This document shows positions 11,528-20,806 of a stretch of 64,000 nt of DNA, in pieces. The notes under the pieces are model-generated. The model was not told where the DNA came from. It worked only from the letters and a program-made list of their open reading frames with translations, and made no database searches. A program made the position numbers and the translations under genes. The stretch is taken from IMG/VR virus record IMGVR_UViG_3300025679_000005, one strand, 5' to 3'. How positions within the stretch are numbered: position 1 is the first letter of the stretch; every line of letters starts with the position of its first letter. Origin of the DNA: a virus (lineage: Duplodnaviria > Caudoviricetes).

Positions 11528-12778
11528 ATGAAAATTCGTACCACAGTCGAGAATCTGAACCAAGCGTTCGAAATAGCGGGCATCGTCACGCCGAAGTTGA
11601 AGAACAACTCGGACGCAGCTTTTCTGATCGCCAACCATGGGGGCAAGCTGTATGTACACTCCCACGACGGGATTCGTGCAACTCGAACTGAGCTTAAGTT
11701 CGACTCCTTAGAGGGCGAAGGTGCCTTCGCGTTCCCCAACGACAAAGTCGGCTCTCTCAAGTACGTGGACGGTTGGATTGAACTGGAATCCGGTCATGAC
11801 GATAAGCGCCATTGGGTCAAGTACACTACAGAAGGTGGCGCCAAGGTAGACATCGCCTCCTACGACCCAGACGCCTACGCCACCCTCGTGCGAAATCTTA
11901 GCGAGACCACTGAGGAGCGCCTGTACCTCACGGCCATTCTTCGGGACGCCTTCAAGACGGTCTTCGGGTTCACCCCAAGGGGCACCGACAAGGATAAGGC
12001 TCCGGACTTTTACAGCACCTTACAGATCTTCGACGCCAGTAAGCCCGAGTGGTTAAGCGGCGACGGTGTGATGCTGGGGGCTGACGGTACCCGGGCAGCC
12101 TTTTTCTCATGTGAGGCTTTGAAGGGCAAAGGCCTTGGGGTGCATACTGATCACCTCTCGTACCTTACAGATTTCTTGGCCAAATGCGGCCCAACGGTCA
12201 AGGTGAAGTTCGGGGAAGCCATGAACTTCCTGATTGAGCTTATCCCTGAAGAGGATGGTACCTTCACCGAGGGGGCCGTCATTGGTTGGGTGAGCCATGT
12301 CACGACACACGCTAAGTACAAGTACTACGCCACTAGTGAGGACCACGCTGTTCTGATGGTGCCCAGGGACATGATGGTGAAGTCTCTGAGCCATATCAGA
12401 TCCCTGCTCTCTGGGAATCAGCCTAAGATTCGTTTGATTTTGAAGGACGGCTTCTTGAACTTCAAGTCAAATGACGGAGGCAACAGCCTGACAAGCGCTC
12501 CTGTAGGGGTGGACCTTCTCGCCTTGGATGATAAGTCTCCGTCGGTGGCAGGATTTGAGTGCAATGCCGACGCAGACCGGCTGGTGGACCTGTTCTCTTC
12601 TGCGAAAGGGCATGAAGTCGAGTTCCGCATTGCTCTAGTAGCTGAGAGCAAGCATCACAAATCAGGGGCCTTCTTTCGGACCTTCGATCGTTTCCGCTTG
12701 AATACTGAGGGTGCCGTAGTCATCTCTCCTGAGGACTCCTACGAATGCCTAGTGACTCGATTCACGCCTTCGGTGTGA
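11528..12778 (+). CDS. DNA polymerase III beta-like sliding clamp
   Basis: Size (416 aa) and three-domain alpha/beta pattern; MKIRTTVENLNQAF start; GADGTRAA resembles the ATDGHRL motif; DnaX nearby. Confidence 0.55.
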   Translation: MKIRTTVENLNQAFEIAGIVTPKLKNNSDAAFLIANHGGKLYVHSHDGIRATRTELKFDSLEGEGAFAFPNDKVGSLKYVDGWIELESGHDDKRHWVKYTTEGGAKVDIASYDPDAYATLVRNLSETTEERLYLTAILRDAFKTVFGFTPRGTDKDKAPDFYSTLQIFDASKPEWLSGDGVMLGADGTRAAFFSCEALKGKGLGVHTDHLSYLTDFLAKCGPTVKVKFGEAMNFLIELIPEEDGTFTEGAVIGWVSHVTTHAKYKYYATSEDHAVLMVPRDMMVKSLSHIRSLLSGNQPKIRLILKDGFLNFKSNDGGNSLTSAPVGVDLLALDDKSPSVAGFECNADADRLVDLFSSAKGHEVEFRIALVAESKHHKSGAFFRTFDRFRLNTEGAVVISPEDSYECLVTRFTPSV

Positions 12779-15765: not shown

Positions 15766-17157
15766 GTGTGGGACATCAAGTATCGCCCAGTACGTTTCAG
15801 TGACGTACTGGGGCAGGAGAGTACCGCCCAGATTCTCAAGTTACGACTGACTAAGGGGACTGCCTTTGACACGTCGTACATCTTCAGCGGTGGTCACGGT
15901 CAAGGTAAGACGACTTTGGCACGTATTCTGGCTAGATCCATGCTTTGCACGGATCTTCAGTCAGACGGCGAGCCCTGCAATGTCTGTGATATGTGCAAGG
16001 AAGTCCTCGCAGACGCCAACCCAGCCTTCACTGAAACTGACGCGGCCTCTAACGGCACCATCGACCATATACGGAAGATCGTTAGCGACCTTCCGTTCGC
16101 GATCAAGGGGGCTGACAAGCGCATATACCTCTTCGATGAGATGCATCGCATGGGTCCTGCTTCCCAGGATGTCTTGCTTAAGCCCATAGAGGACAAGAAG
16201 CTGGTCGGTATTTTTTGCACAACAGAGGCTGTGAAGATTCGAGGGACTATCCGTTCCAGGTGTGAAGAGTACAAGATCCGCAACATCACTAGGGAGGACA
16301 TCCTTGGTAGGATGCGGTTGATCCTGACCCAAGAACAGATCGAATTTGAAGAGGACGCGGTCCTCACTGTTATTGACCATTCCCATGGGCATGTCCGGGA
16401 TGTGGTCAATAAGCTGGAGATGATCGCCCAATTGGGGCCTATTCGACTTGAAGCAGTAAGAGAATACTTGAGTTTGTCTGTGGTTTCGATGTACTATGAG
16501 ATCTTACTCTCATTAGGAAATCCGGCAGTCGCTGTCAAACTAGCTGAAACTGCCTGTGATCAAGTAGGTCCTGACGCAGTCTACGAAGGTTTGGCAGAAG
16601 CAGCCATGACATCCTACCGGATGGCCAACCGTATGTATGTGGACTACACCTATGTGGACAGGATCTTGGCTGATAAGGTGCAAGCTCAATACAAGGACGC
16701 CTTGTTGCAGCTAACTGAGCACTTTGTGGCCGCACCCCCTAAGGCAGGGCGGATCCGCCTCCTGTGTGACATTCTGGCTTGCTCGACTGGTGTTCCCTCC
16801 AAGGCAGTGGTTACCAAAGTACAGGTCCAGGTGGCGGCTCCCATTATCTTGGACAGCCCACCAGTGCCCGTCCTAAACCCCCCTCAGCTGGCAGTAGCAG
16901 TGCTGGCTGACCTCATAAAACCCCCCTCCATACCTTCTACTGAGCGCACCTCAAAGGTAGGCAACTTGGGTTCTGACGATGCTTGCGCACTCACATCGTT
17001 GGATGAAAAAGCGATACGCCAGGACATGCCTAGGGGCACCTCGGAAAGTGTGAGGCCCTCAAAGGATGTCCCCAAAGGTAAAGCGGACCTGCTGACGCAC
17101 GACGAGTGGAGTCGTGCTATCTATCAGAGGATGGATATTTTTGGTATGGGGGTCTAA
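15766..17157 (+). CDS. dnaX: DNA polymerase III gamma/tau clamp-loader subunit
   Basis: KYRPVRFSDVLGQE, GGHGQGKTTLARI, EPCNVCDMC, DAASNGTID, FDEMH, TIRSRC. Confidence 0.88.
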   Translation: MWDIKYRPVRFSDVLGQESTAQILKLRLTKGTAFDTSYIFSGGHGQGKTTLARILARSMLCTDLQSDGEPCNVCDMCKEVLADANPAFTETDAASNGTIDHIRKIVSDLPFAIKGADKRIYLFDEMHRMGPASQDVLLKPIEDKKLVGIFCTTEAVKIRGTIRSRCEEYKIRNITREDILGRMRLILTQEQIEFEEDAVLTVIDHSHGHVRDVVNKLEMIAQLGPIRLEAVREYLSLSVVSMYYEILLSLGNPAVAVKLAETACDQVGPDAVYEGLAEAAMTSYRMANRMYVDYTYVDRILADKVQAQYKDALLQLTEHFVAAPPKAGRIRLLCDILACSTGVPSKAVVTKVQVQVAAPIILDSPPVPVLNPPQLAVAVLADLIKPPSIPSTERTSKVGNLGSDDACALTSLDEKAIRQDMPRGTSESVRPSKDVPKGKADLLTHDEWSRAIYQRMDIFGMGV

Positions 17158-18959
17158 TGGGCGAGTCTTGGGTAGTACTGGAACTCAGTTCGCGAAGCGA
17201 TCAGGAGGATCCTGATGTGGTTAAAGCGGCAATCGTCCGTTCATTGAAACGAGCCGAGGTGTTCATACCTGCGGCAGTGACACAGATAGGTGAGGATCGC
17301 TCTGTGCACGTTTTGATGGAAGGGTATGCCTTCGTGCGCCTTGACCGCGCTCCCCAGGACTACTTTAGGCTGGAGAATACCAAGTACGTCCAAGCTGTAC
17401 TGGCTTTACCTGGGGCTAATGGACGCCACCGCAAGCTCTCAACCGTAGACGACTCCGCCATTGCGAAGATGAGGGAGCAAATACGATTGCTGGTGGACCA
17501 GGGGATCAGCGTGGGGGATACCGTACGTATCACCTCTGGGCCATACCGTAACATGCAGGCGGAAGTGGTGGAGGAGATACCCGAGGAAGGGAAAGTGCAG
17601 GTTTACATCAAATTGCGCTCCAAGCAGAGCCTGGTGGCATTGCCCAGGTCTTTCCTAGTGGTGGTCGAACGCGCACCTCTGTCGACAGTCAGTGGGCGCA
17701 TCAACGTTTTGCGGGATTGGGCCTTAGCCGCACACCCTATAATCAAGTGGACCGCCGACTGGGCCTCTTTGGAGAAAGCGTATAAGCAGTATGCCAGGGT
17801 AGAGACACTACGTCGGCAGATGGCGCTCCTTATCGAGACGCGCATTTTCGATATCACCTATCCCAAGGAACTGGCTGATTTATCGAACAGGTGTCAGGTG
17901 GTGGGTGCCCTCCAACGGTGGGAGACTCAAATACGTCTCCTGGAGAGTTACATCGGATTCTATCAGGGAATTCCCAGCGGGGAAGACTTGGCTACGGCCC
18001 ACGGCAAGGTAGCGGAGTTGCTCTGGATTGACGAAGTCCTTGGAAAGATACGCTCGCTCTGGGAGGATGTTGAGAGCATATCCAGGGCTTTAGCTCACAG
18101 GCAGGAAAAAGAGATGGTCGAAAACGTGATTGTAGATGGGCACAATCTAGCCTGTCGTTGTGCCTATGCCCCTGGGATCTCCAATTTGATGGACAGTCAA
18201 GGGCGCCCAACAGGGGTGATTATCGGCTTCCTGCGTAGCCTGGGCTCTTTGAAGAAGCGCTACCCCGACGCAGTCCTCTACGTCACCTGGGACGGTTCCT
18301 CGAAGCGGCGCCGGGCTAGATTTTCTGAGTACAAGGCCCAACGCAACTCGATTCCTCCGGATATCAGGGTCTTGAAGGAACTACTCCCTTTGGTTGGAGT
18401 TCGTCAAGCTTGGAATCCTGACGAAGAGGCGGACGATGTCATTGCTACTTTGACGCGCCGTGACTTGGCCAAGCAACGAAATGTGATGTTCTCGACCGAT
18501 AAAGATTTACTGCAATTGGTCAATGACGAGACTTCACTTCTGATCCCGCCGGTCGGGTCGCGCAACGAGATCCTGTTTGACCCGACTACTGTTCTCGAAG
18601 CAGTGGGGGTAGCACCCTCTAAAATGGTGCAATTAAGAGCTTTCTACGGGGACACCTCGGACAATATCCCTGGCGTCCCTAGGGTACCTAAGAAGGTCCT
18701 CCGTTCGTTAGTCCAAGCACACGGCTCTGTAGAAGCAGTCTACAGGTCAGGACTCACAGGGTTGACCAAGGGTCAATATGAGAGGTTGCGCAGTGCCGAA
18801 CCTCAAGTCAAAATAAATGTGGAGCTGATGTCTCTGGTGGACGTGGTTGTCGAAGTCACCATGCCAGACACGGATCCTAATGCCGCTGCCTCAATCCTAA
18901 CGGAATATGAGATACAGCCGGGTAGTTTGCTAGAGACGTTTTTTAGGAGGTCCCTGTAA
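17157..18959 (+). CDS. NusG (NGN+KOW) fused to a PolI-type 5'-3' exonuclease/flap endonuclease
   Basis: N-terminus WVVLE...VFIP...LMEGYAFV, KOW GDTVRITSGPYRNMQAEV; C-terminus VIVDGHNL, TGVIIGF, TWDG, YKAQR, EADDVIATL, STDKDLLQL, GDTSDNIPGVP; one uninterrupted frame; TAATG overlap start. Confidence 0.82.
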   Translation: MGESWVVLELSSRSDQEDPDVVKAAIVRSLKRAEVFIPAAVTQIGEDRSVHVLMEGYAFVRLDRAPQDYFRLENTKYVQAVLALPGANGRHRKLSTVDDSAIAKMREQIRLLVDQGISVGDTVRITSGPYRNMQAEVVEEIPEEGKVQVYIKLRSKQSLVALPRSFLVVVERAPLSTVSGRINVLRDWALAAHPIIKWTADWASLEKAYKQYARVETLRRQMALLIETRIFDITYPKELADLSNRCQVVGALQRWETQIRLLESYIGFYQGIPSGEDLATAHGKVAELLWIDEVLGKIRSLWEDVESISRALAHRQEKEMVENVIVDGHNLACRCAYAPGISNLMDSQGRPTGVIIGFLRSLGSLKKRYPDAVLYVTWDGSSKRRRARFSEYKAQRNSIPPDIRVLKELLPLVGVRQAWNPDEEADDVIATLTRRDLAKQRNVMFSTDKDLLQLVNDETSLLIPPVGSRNEILFDPTTVLEAVGVAPSKMVQLRAFYGDTSDNIPGVPRVPKKVLRSLVQAHGSVEAVYRSGLTGLTKGQYERLRSAEPQVKINVELMSLVDVVVEVTMPDTDPNAAASILTEYEIQPGSLLETFFRRSL

Positions 18960-19616
18960 ATGAGCAACGGCTATGTTATCCCCATTGATCCCGCAGAACT
19001 AGCCAACCGTTTCTCATACGAGGACCCCCTCTTTGACGATGAGGATGAGGAAATAGACGAGGACCTCGTGACCAACGTCAGTGCCGACAGCTTGTCGGAC
19101 TACTTTTCTGACGGGGACTACGAGAGTCGCATTGCCCCACTCCTGGATCGAATACCCGAGCGCGAAGCTGACCTCATCTATCTGTACTTCATCGAGAAGA
19201 AGCGTCAGGCGGACATCGCCACCATCTTCGGTGTGACCCAGGCCGCCATCTCCTACCGCCTGGACCGAGGTATCAAGCGTCTCAAGTTCCTCCTATCGAT
19301 TCCCCAGCTGACCAAAGAAGAGCTGGAGGCCGACCTTCCATCTGTTTTCCCCCAGAAAATAGATGTCGACATCCTGATTGGTATGTGGGCCACCACCTGC
19401 CAATCAGAGGTCGCCTCCAATTTAGGGTTGACCCAGGGACGAGTCCGCCACCGCTTCTTCAAGGCCGTCAAGACTCTGGAAGAGGCGGCCCTGAAGGATG
19501 AGAGGTATGTACCCTATCAGAAGATCTTTTCCACAATAGCGGAAAAAAGATTCAACATCCTGAGAGAGGTACGTCTCCCCCAATGGCAAGACCGCGGAGG
19601 AGATGAGTGTACTTGA
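18960..19616 (+). CDS. Sigma70 region-4-like tandem HTH transcription factor
   Basis: LLDRIPEREADLIYLYF...RQADIATIFGVTQAAISYRLDRG, and a second QSEVASNLGLTQGRVRHRFFKA; no recognisable region 2. Confidence 0.65.
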   Translation: MSNGYVIPIDPAELANRFSYEDPLFDDEDEEIDEDLVTNVSADSLSDYFSDGDYESRIAPLLDRIPEREADLIYLYFIEKKRQADIATIFGVTQAAISYRLDRGIKRLKFLLSIPQLTKEELEADLPSVFPQKIDVDILIGMWATTCQSEVASNLGLTQGRVRHRFFKAVKTLEEAALKDERYVPYQKIFSTIAEKRFNILREVRLPQWQDRGGDECT

Positions 19617-19663: not shown

Positions 19664-19697
19664 TTGCTACATGGGTGTGATGTGCTAAGATCACCTA
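19664..19697 (+). promoter_or_regulatory. Sigma70-like promoter, probably giving a leaderless transcript
   Basis: TTGCTA (19664-69), 16-nt spacer, TG-c-TAAGAT (19686-91), ATG at 19697, no SD. Confidence 0.45.
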
Positions 19698-20806
19698 TGT
19701 ATTTTAAGCACAACCTTAGTCAGACCCCTGAATACAAGTGCTGGCAGCAGATCAAGTCTCGTTGCTTGAATCAAGACCATCGGGCGTACCCCAACTATGG
19801 CGGCCGAGGGATCATGATTTGTCCGGAATGGCTGAACGACTTTGAGTCATTCTATGCTTACGTGGGGCCGCGCCCGACTCCAAAGCATTCTCTAGACAGG
19901 TTCCCAAACAACGATGGGGACTACGAGCCTGGAAACGTACGTTGGGCAACCTGGGACGAACAGGTGGTCAATAGAAGGCCACACGGAGAGGGCAACACCT
20001 TGCCTCCTAGGCCCAGGTCTGAAAAAGTCACCAACTTCAAGCATGGCCTGATAGGTCGCCCGGAATATAAAAATTGGTCTGCGATGAAGGATCGCTGCCT
20101 CAATGAGAGTAGCTCGAACTACCCACATTGGGGTGGTAAAGGAGTCAAGGTGCATCCGGAATGGATCCACGACTTCGTAGCTTTCTTTCAATACATGGGG
20201 CCTAAGCCTACGCCCCAGCATTCATTAGACAGGTTCCCGAACAAGGGCGGGAACTACGAGCCAGGCAACGTTAGGTGGGCCACGAAGCGTGAGCAGAACC
20301 TGAATAGGCATGCATTTGTTACAGGCCCAGCCCACGGTAACCATGGTCACGGGGGCGTAGGCACTCCCGAGTACAAGGCTTGGACAAGCATCAAGACTCG
20401 CTGCTTCAACCCAAATCACGATGGCTACGCTGCATACGGGGCGTTGGGCATTACCATGTGTCAACGGTGGAAAGATGACTTTCCGGCTTTTATCCAGGAC
20501 TTGGGACCCAGGCCTTCAGAGGGTCACGTGGTAGGACGTACCGACCTCGCTGCTTCCTATTCTTGTGGTAAGTGCGAGGAGTGCCTTGCGAAACAGTGGC
20601 TGTCCAATTGCCAGTGGACTTTGAGGAGCCTAGCTCAGAACCGCAACCGTCGCTCAAACAAGCTGACCTTTGAGAAGGCGGAGTTGATCCGGCAACGATT
20701 GTCGGACGGGTGCACCTACAAGGCCGTAGCCGAAGAGTTTGGGATTGGGGTTTCGCTGGTCGGGAAGATCAAGTGCGGGGATATCTGGGCCCGCCCCACC
20801 CCGTAA
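19697..20806 (+). CDS. HNH-type homing endonuclease-like protein: three tandem domains plus C-terminal HTH
   Basis: Three repeats of PEYKxWxxIKxRC.N...YGGxG....W...F..F...GPxP...SLDR.P...YEPGNVRWAT, then KLTFEKAELIR...AVAEEFGIG. Confidence 0.8.
   Translation: MYFKHNLSQTPEYKCWQQIKSRCLNQDHRAYPNYGGRGIMICPEWLNDFESFYAYVGPRPTPKHSLDRFPNNDGDYEPGNVRWATWDEQVVNRRPHGEGNTLPPRPRSEKVTNFKHGLIGRPEYKNWSAMKDRCLNESSSNYPHWGGKGVKVHPEWIHDFVAFFQYMGPKPTPQHSLDRFPNKGGNYEPGNVRWATKREQNLNRHAFVTGPAHGNHGHGGVGTPEYKAWTSIKTRCFNPNHDGYAAYGALGITMCQRWKDDFPAFIQDLGPRPSEGHVVGRTDLAASYSCGKCEECLAKQWLSNCQWTLRSLAQNRNRRSNKLTFEKAELIRQRLSDGCTYKAVAEEFGIGVSLVGKIKCGDIWARPTP

Follow-up and report, generated by a model that had tools for sequence, protein, structure and literature searches.

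A NusG-like module joined to a Pol I-type flap nuclease in a protein of huge phages

Introduction

NusG-type factors normally recruit their partners, among them Rho, the ribosome and FttA, in a non-covalent manner. The gene considered here, located at positions 17157 to 18959 on the plus strand of the IMG/VR virus record IMGVR_UViG_3300025679_000005 (Duplodnaviria; Caudoviricetes), encodes a protein of 600 amino acids in which a NusG-like module, consisting of an NGN and a KOW domain, is followed by a helical spacer and by a 5'-3' exonuclease/flap endonuclease (FEN) of the type found in DNA polymerase I (Pol I). The whole stretch of 64,000 nucleotides that was analysed is called the window in the following. 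The NGN-KOW architecture is shared with RfaH, LoaP, UpxY, ActX/TaA and NusG/Spt5, and the specialised NusG paralogues are likewise encoded by mobile elements beside the genes that they presumably serve. RfaH-like proteins carry the same G-Y-x-F motif, with the Tyr corresponding to RfaH Y54 and a Phe at position +2 (PMC2871177). In contrast to these paralogues, the fusion protein adds a helical domain of 145 residues and a C-terminal nuclease with a complete predicted active site. It also differs from E. coli NusG, as its KOW domain has an Arg at the position of F165 (PMC7390762), and from RfaH, for which a recruitment DNA element is known, whereas none is known, and none was sought, for the fusion protein.

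The nuclease half has the same fold, acidic residues and arch residues as the 5'-nuclease domain of Pol I, M. smegmatis FenA, E. coli ExoIX, T5 D15 and T4 RNase H, and its best sequence matches are N-terminal domains of Pol I (E about 1e-27). Unlike in Pol I, it is attached to a transcription-factor module, while the PolA of the phages is devoid of it, and the G-I-G-E-K motif is replaced by R-V-P-K-K. Functionally, the closest described systems are the Rat1/Xrn2 torpedo and the archaeal Spt5-FttA pair, which couple a 5'-3' nuclease to elongating RNA polymerase (RNAP); in the latter, a factor of the NusG/Spt5 family connects the 5'-3' nuclease FttA (aCPSF1) to the elongating enzyme (PMC11616081). 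The archaeal link is non-covalent and brings a beta-CASP RNase to the nascent RNA, whereas the link in the fusion protein is covalent and involves a FEN/PIN-like DNA/hybrid nuclease. Since the fused nuclease is not of the beta-CASP/metallo-beta-lactamase type according to Pfam and fold, the resemblance is functional only. Another parallel is found in the gene order rnh-dsbA-33 of bacteriophage T4, where a gene of the FEN family has late-transcription co-activators as its immediate neighbours, at the place where replication genes give way to virion genes (NC_000866.4). Both T4 and the phages discussed here encode a sliding clamp and a clamp loader, but in T4 the proteins are separate, no link between RNase H and gp33 is known, a NusG-like module is missing and the clamp is of the gp45 type and not of the beta type.

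A sequence-only reading of the window had found the gene and knew of no description of such a fusion, and no publication on a NusG-flap nuclease fusion in phages was found in the literature searched. Moreover, AFDB contains no cluster with the combined architecture, and BFVD has annotated standalone NusG/RfaH-like proteins of phages. By these searches, a nuclease covalently attached to a NusG paralogue is previously undescribed. As discussed below, the NGN domain may anchor a replication flap nuclease on the host RNAP, at transcription complexes on replicating phage DNA, a reading to which we assign a probability of about one half.

Organization of the fusion gene

The gene consists of 600 codons plus stop in one continuous frame. 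The NGN domain comprises residues 4-114 (17166-17498), the KOW domain residues 115-171 (17499-17669), the four-helix spacer domain residues 176-316 (17682-18104) and the Pol I-type nuclease residues 323-600 (18123-18956), all on the plus strand. In the full-length AF2 model (mean pLDDT 90.5, pTM 0.56) the same layout is seen, with NGN at 4-114, KOW at 122-171, four long helices at 176-316, where pLDDT in the AF2 models ranges from 78 to 97, and FEN at 323-596. PHROGs labels the protein both as 'exonuclease' and as 'transcription antiterminator'. The start codon at 17157 shares bases with the stop codon of the clamp-loader gene (TAATG), through which the two genes are translationally coupled, and the ATG of the downstream gene at 18960, encoding a tandem sigma-70 region-4 (sigma-r4) protein, immediately follows the stop of the fusion gene. 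The anatomy given in the sequence-only reading, namely a single frame with NGN, KOW, helical linker and nuclease, acidic motifs intact and the sigma-r4 gene following without a gap, is therefore correct as judged by the reading frame, Pfam, profile comparison, fold comparison and AF2 modelling.

The NusG-like module

Several lines of evidence place the N-terminal half in the NusG family. Pfam recognizes the KOW domain in residues 119-148 (23.6 bits, cut-off 22.3). For the NGN domain, in residues 20-106, the Pfam NusG score of 20.1 bits is slightly below the cut-off of 22.2, which is passed by more distant relatives (30.1 bits). With a profile of the N-terminal half built from 61 family members, solved NusG structures rank first (T. 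maritima NusG, E 3.5e-8; Aquifex NusG, 1e-6). The AF2 model of residues 1-320 (pLDDT 93.5) has only NusG, RfaH and Spt5 among its top Foldseek matches. In VIA-align, the NGN domain superposes on that of RfaH with a Z score of 9.5 (97 of 101 residues, 3.6 A) and on that of NusG with a Z score of 8.0 (91 residues aligned), and the KOW domain matches that of T. maritima NusG with a Z score of 11.4 (57 residues, root-mean-square deviation 1.1 A, 30% identity). Because profile and fold comparisons support the NusG family, the NGN assignment holds despite the sub-threshold Pfam score.

Within the NGN domain, G56-Y57-A-F59 is invariant across 118 homologs and pairs with P-G-Y-V-F/L-V of T. maritima and E. 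coli NusG, so that Y57 and F59 match Y54 and F56 of RfaH. These two RfaH residues lie on the proposed binding surface for the beta' clamp helices; Y54 is among the most conserved residues of all NusG paralogues, and the Y54F exchange abolishes function (PMC2871177). The KOW domain shows a different picture, as the loop I164-F165-G166-R167 of E. coli NusG is replaced by L153-R154-S155-K156, which is at least 90% conserved. F165 of E. coli NusG, which is essential for binding to S10 and the ribosome (PMC7390762), is not kept, its position being occupied by R154. Canonical ribosome coupling is thus improbable, and the basic loop points to nucleic acid or another partner. With a mean column identity of 0.76, KOW is the best-conserved domain of the N-terminal half, while the spacer is the least conserved (0.37). 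The spacer keeps its length but varies in sequence, except for the invariant W188, and occurs in fused and split forms alike; an Atlas feature search with it gave no usable match.

Could the NGN-KOW module have been re-used as adaptor to a partner other than RNAP, for example the replisome, the single-stranded DNA-binding protein, a helicase or nucleic acid, making the protein purely a nuclease of replication or repair? Such a function could be imagined for a gene that lies in the replication module coupled to the clamp loader, the more so as the Phe that binds S10 is gone from the KOW domain, which is second only to FEN in conservation, and as the NGN domain stays below the Pfam threshold. 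However, the signature Tyr and Phe are invariant, and no characterised NGN domain is known to have a partner other than RNAP. In addition, the same module is joined to a sigma factor in another protein (P0183, see below), and the sigma-r4 gene adjoins the NGN-KOW gene even in the phage LR745208, which has no FEN. We consider an adaptor role of this kind very doubtful.

The 5' nuclease

Both Pfam families of Pol I-type 5' nucleases are recognized well above their cut-offs, 5_3_exonuc_N (PF02739) in residues 324-483 (E 2e-29, 102.7 bits, cut-off 34.3) and 5_3_exonuc (PF01367) in residues 485-571 (E 1e-13, 51.9 bits, cut-off 40). The domain superposes on M. smegmatis FenA (TM 0.76), and Taq Pol I, ExoIX and T5 FEN match as well. 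In the alignment with Taq and M. smegmatis Pol I, the two-metal set of acidic residues is complete: D327, D379, E424, D426, D427, D448 and D450 correspond to D18, D67, E117, D119, D120, D142 and D144 of Taq, and among the 118 homologs these metal-binding residues are either invariant or conserved to at least 90%. The G-D-x-S-D motif and the Y-K-x-x-R motif of the arch are both kept, and R384, R385, Y392, K393 and R396 of the threading arch are conserved. The C-terminal nuclease is thus predicted to be catalytically complete. A family-specific change is found at the DNA-backbone/K+ site, where the family carries an invariant R509-V-P511-K512-K513 (18681-18695) in place of the helix-hairpin-helix G-I-G-E-K known from Pol I 5' nucleases, with the Pfam threshold still being passed. 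The C-terminal L592-x-x-F595-F596 was considered as a PIP-box-like clamp-binding tail, but this proposal was rejected, because FEN domains of AFDB and the PDB align through residues 595-600 and the helix is therefore part of the normal FEN fold.

What the nuclease is used for may be indicated by the gene content of five near-complete relatives (G001-G005, the records of L020, L036, L045, L028 and L034), which are 408-512 kb long, three of them with terminal repeats, and have a CheckV completeness of 86-100%. Each encodes exactly one Pol I-type 5' nuclease (PF02739) and exactly one NusG-like module, both in the same fused open reading frame (ORF). Each also has one family-A DNA polymerase (PolA) in a distant ORF of 930-1422 amino acids without a 5'-nuclease domain, and one RNase HII, while neither RNase HI nor Pol III alpha above the cut-off was detected in any of the five. 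The domain that is fused to Pol I in bacteria has thus been detached from the polymerase and joined to a transcription-factor module. Being the only FEN of the group, it probably serves as the replicative primer/flap nuclease, too. Neither the beta nor the beta' subunit of RNAP was found in the five genomes, and the phages presumably use the RNAP of the host. A search of the relatives for T7-type RNAP (PF00940) gave no match either, but as its control gave none, this negative carries no weight. In one relative (G003), the family-A polymerase gives two separated matches in its 1422-residue ORF, which suggests an insertion, for example an intein.

The example of FttA, which archaeal Spt5 bridges to the elongation complex (PMC11616081), raises the question whether the RNAP-bound nuclease could degrade nascent RNA in 5' to 3' direction and dislodge the polymerase, leading to torpedo-like termination or shut-off of host transcription. 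The conserved residues of the threading arch would be consistent with such an activity. On the other hand, the 5' nucleases of the Pol I type are structure-specific DNA/hybrid nucleases and not processive single-strand RNases, the fused domain is the only FEN of these phages and a replication role is required of it anyway, and nothing in the protein distinguishes host from phage transcripts. Among the readings considered, a torpedo appears the most improbable.

Fused and split forms

The fusion is widespread among related phages. In a word-indexed search, more than 120 protein clusters of 600-640 amino acids cover 99-100% of the fusion protein at 47-90% identity, several of which had been named automatically '5'-3' exonuclease/transcription antitermination factor NusG' by JGI pipelines. 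HMMER with residues 1-320 retrieved 294 representatives at the 50% identity level, and a nuclease is present in 52 of the best 150. Scanning IMG/VR with the family alignment yielded 56 loci on contigs of up to 512 kb. The frame is unbroken in 48 of the 56, the fused state persisting to about 38% identity, and continuity, which the sequence-only reading had left to be confirmed in orthologs, was seen in relatives sharing 90, 71, 67 and 65% identity as well as in over 100 other clusters. A search of 185,579 bacterial and archaeal species (one genome each) retrieved no relative, and among the phage records of GenBank there is no full-length match, the NGN-KOW module occurring only in LR745208 and the fusion in none. 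The source element is a huge phage, as its terminase is nearest to that of LR745208, an uncultured phage of 485 kb, and relatives are found on contigs of 360-512 kb, several of which have terminal repeats.

LR745208 contains the clamp loader, a standalone NGN-KOW protein of 207 residues and the tandem sigma-r4 gene in this order, but nowhere do its 485 kb encode a Pol I-type nuclease. Clean split forms occur as well. In one of these (L015), an NGN-KOW-spacer protein of 312 residues ends just past the last spacer helix and is followed by a FEN of 289 residues, which starts with the GTG within a GTGA overlap, and then by the sigma-r4 gene; on the contig of P0146, proteins of 367 and 302 residues precede the sigma-r4 gene, and L016 is similar. 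The break in these clean splits lies at the position of Met320 of the fusion protein, and the split genes are adjacent and overlapping. A further candidate, L013 (P0134), was rejected as natural split, as it has a frameshift inside the last spacer helix and a truncated FEN and is probably the result of faulty assembly or of gene decay. More distantly, a clade with 27-30% identity (L069-L073, IMG/VR contigs of up to 393 kb) encodes an NGN-KOW protein of 194-219 residues without spacer, FEN and sigma-r4 in adjacent genes. Because these three genes are neighbours there in the absence of a spacer, their association is older than the fusion and the spacer. Yet another arrangement is P0183 (L014 3612-5237, on a contig of JGI 3300080028), a protein of 541 residues in which sigma-70 regions 2 and 4 precede the NGN-KOW module (residues 324-499). 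Its gene is preceded by a helicase gene, and a Ku gene follows after a few further genes.

In a provisional tree of the NGN-KOW module, made quickly by maximum likelihood from 147 rows with a midpoint root and with SH-aLRT as the only measure of support, all 53 fused forms fall within one group of 77 tips, and 18 split forms are nested in it at several places. At least three changes between the fused and the split state are forced by well-supported branches, suggesting, again provisionally, that fusion or fission has recurred.

The joint between spacer and nuclease may still be read as a start site. The sequence-only reading had pointed to an in-frame ATG at 18114 with an upstream AGGA, from which the nuclease alone could be produced. 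Both elements are present (18103-18116, with AGGA at 18103-18106, a gap of 7 nucleotides and the ATG of Met320), at the position where the FEN of split relatives starts. Among 39 distinct fused genes, the joint has ATG in 31, GTG in five and another codon in three. Where the residue is Val it is encoded by GTG in five of seven codons, as compared to 27% GTG usage overall. A Shine-Dalgarno core (GGAG, GAGG or AGGA, 4-18 nucleotides upstream) precedes 16 of the 39 joints, against a frequency of 0.155 at all in-frame positions of these genes (binomial P about 1e-4, with related genes treated as independent), and is found at 18 of the 39 true gene starts, which is similar to the frequency at the joint. 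As a caveat, the end of the spacer is rich in K, R, E and G, which favours purine-rich codons. Met constitutes 1.7% of the residues of the fused proteins, and Met320 lies in a coil of the model. The initial impression that Met320 is not conserved, Met being found in 45 of 118 sequences of the protein alignment, was overturned at the DNA level by ATG or GTG in 36 of 39 genes. The idea of a free nuclease has thus gained support from the start codons, the frequency of the Shine-Dalgarno core and the FEN start in split relatives, and because the joint still carries the translation signals of a former FEN gene, the phage may produce free nuclease in addition to the full-length protein.

These observations bear on the question whether the two halves have anything to do with each other. 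It could be imagined that two independent functions share one frame, a NusG-like elongation or antitermination factor for downstream operons and a FEN for Okazaki primers, that the fusion of neighbours secures co-expression and nothing else, that the nuclease acts mainly as free protein made from the internal start and that a tether to RNAP is mechanistically idle. The interleaving of clean split versions with fused ones, the start codon and Shine-Dalgarno core kept at the joint, the adjacent genes without spacer in L069-L073 and the NusG-like gene without any FEN in LR745208 would all agree with such a scenario. It would be expected less readily that most loci (48 of 56) and most tree tips (53 of 77) are fused, that the fused state extends to sequences of about 38% identity, that a folded spacer of conserved length is maintained between the parts, and that the FEN gene, where present, is situated between the NusG-like and the sigma-r4 genes, away from other replication genes. 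Moreover, since split genes stay adjacent or overlapping and the L069-L073 clade keeps the same neighbours, a functional tie beyond the fusion itself is indicated. Independent functions are therefore unlikely, although they deserve to be taken seriously.

A proposed anchoring of the flap nuclease on RNA polymerase

How could a NusG-like factor and a flap nuclease act together? The sequence-only reading had proposed a nuclease tethered to RNAP, with the resolution of R-loops or conflicts, torpedo-like termination or the coupling of late transcription as possible roles, and the tether as such is still the reading that is best supported: the tether is favoured because the Tyr of the G-Y-x-F motif is invariant, the sigma-r4 gene adjoins and P0183 fuses NGN-KOW to a sigma-70 factor. 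The covalent nature of the link, on the contrary, does not seem to be indispensable, considering the split forms. According to the proposed mechanism, the NGN domain would dock on the clamp helices of a host RNAP that is reprogrammed by the sigma-like factors of the phage, and the spacer would set a distance of some tens of angstroms between nuclease and polymerase. There the nuclease could cleave 5' flaps and also RNA hybridized to DNA, where transcription and clamp-dependent phage replication share the template; candidate substrates would be primers derived from transcripts, R-loops and displaced 5' ends of Okazaki fragments. With RNase HII and PolA, the same nuclease might also carry out ordinary maturation of the lagging strand, a task for which free protein is probably made in addition from the Met320 start. 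As for the KOW domain, its ligand in this mechanism would probably be nucleic acid or some partner from the phage instead of the ribosome.

Several points weigh against this proposal. The 5' nucleases of the Pol I type prefer duplex-containing substrates, and the presence of such substrates at RNAP would have to be assumed. The link between NGN and the host RNAP is a predicted one, and the Pfam score of the NGN domain remains below threshold. The nesting of split among fused forms means that the covalent tether is dispensable in some lineages, and the start kept at Met320 might indicate that it is the free nuclease that counts, even if the codon and Shine-Dalgarno counts that speak for this start do not allow for the relatedness of the genes. 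Furthermore, the gene content was determined in G001-G005, whose NGN-KOW modules are 46-61% identical to that of the window, and is extrapolated to the genome of the window.

With the only NusG-like module and the only flap nuclease of these phages residing in one protein, a physical link between transcription and replication is encountered that was undescribed before. If NGN binds RNAP, the protein would offer a genetically simple natural handle on transcription-replication conflicts, on the removal of R-loops or transcript primers, or on replication-coupled late expression. The fused, split and NusG-only forms are natural variants that could be used as ready-made controls.

Gene neighbourhood

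The fusion gene lies at the boundary between replication and virion genes. Upstream, at 15766-17157 on the plus strand, is a gene for a clamp-loader subunit (Pfam DNA_pol3_delta2, E 1e-22; PHROG clamp loader, E 9e-51), and downstream, at 18960-19616 on the same strand, the gene for the tandem sigma-r4 protein, in which Pfam Sigma70_r4 is found in two stretches (E 1e-14). The order Toprim primase, metallopeptidase, clamp loader, NusG-FEN and tandem sigma-r4 is constant in all long contigs inspected; among the 56 IMG/VR loci, the clamp loader is upstream in 52 and the sigma-r4 gene downstream in 45. A beta sliding clamp is encoded at 11528-12778 (plus strand). It was missed by Pfam and PHROGs at E <0.01 and found only by a family profile against the PDB (Pol III beta, E 3.3e-6) and by structure, its Atlas model having TM scores of 0.77/0.86 to DnaN. 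In LR745208.1, the clamp loader (L005 1949-3496, minus strand) has an apparent intein-like insert before the AAA+ lid region, which is missing in the clamp loader of the window.

This location between clamp loader and sigma-r4 gene invites comparison with the connection of late transcription to replication in T4, where rnh, of the FEN family, is found beside dsbA and gene 33, the gp45-gp55 connector (NC_000866.4). By analogy, the FEN domain could read nicks, flaps or the beta clamp while NGN holds the host RNAP, so that together with the sigma-r4 protein late genes would be expressed only from replicating templates; in that case the protein would correspond to T4 gp45-gp33-gp55 but would be built on NusG and have evolved independently. 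The parallel to T4 rests on gene order alone, though, and a connector would not need catalysis, whereas the full catalytic set is retained. The C-terminal L-x-x-F-F helix, belonging to the normal fold, does not provide a free clamp-binding tail. A complex test of the beta clamp with FEN residues 323-600 gave a weak signal with a score of 0.44, as compared to 0.00 for the best of three controls, partner pLDDT being at least 76. The mark of this test is reached by 58 of 80 solved complexes and by two of 110 mismatched pairs, at scores of 0.60 or less by seven of the 80 and by both of the passing mismatches, so that a pass of this kind is more often wrong than right. In addition, one of three runs gave 0.00, and the runs agree in at least 0% of the contacts. 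Pairs of FEN and clamp are textbook knowledge in other systems, and likeness to these may contribute to the score. A connector of this type is quite improbable, and the anchoring of an active flap nuclease on RNAP remains the preferred reading.

Scans of the window for sigma-70 promoters and terminators gave nothing above shuffled sequence, and the motif GGTGTA, seen elsewhere in the genome as promoter candidate, is not enriched in the window (22 occurrences, 17.8 expected). The sigma-r4 gene is separated from the next conserved gene by a gene for an HNH endonuclease with three repeats (19664-20806; PHROG E 2e-89), which is absent from this place in L006, L008, L010, L011 and L012. On the contig of P0146, an Endonuclease_7 gene is found at the same site, which looks like an insertion hot spot of homing endonucleases.

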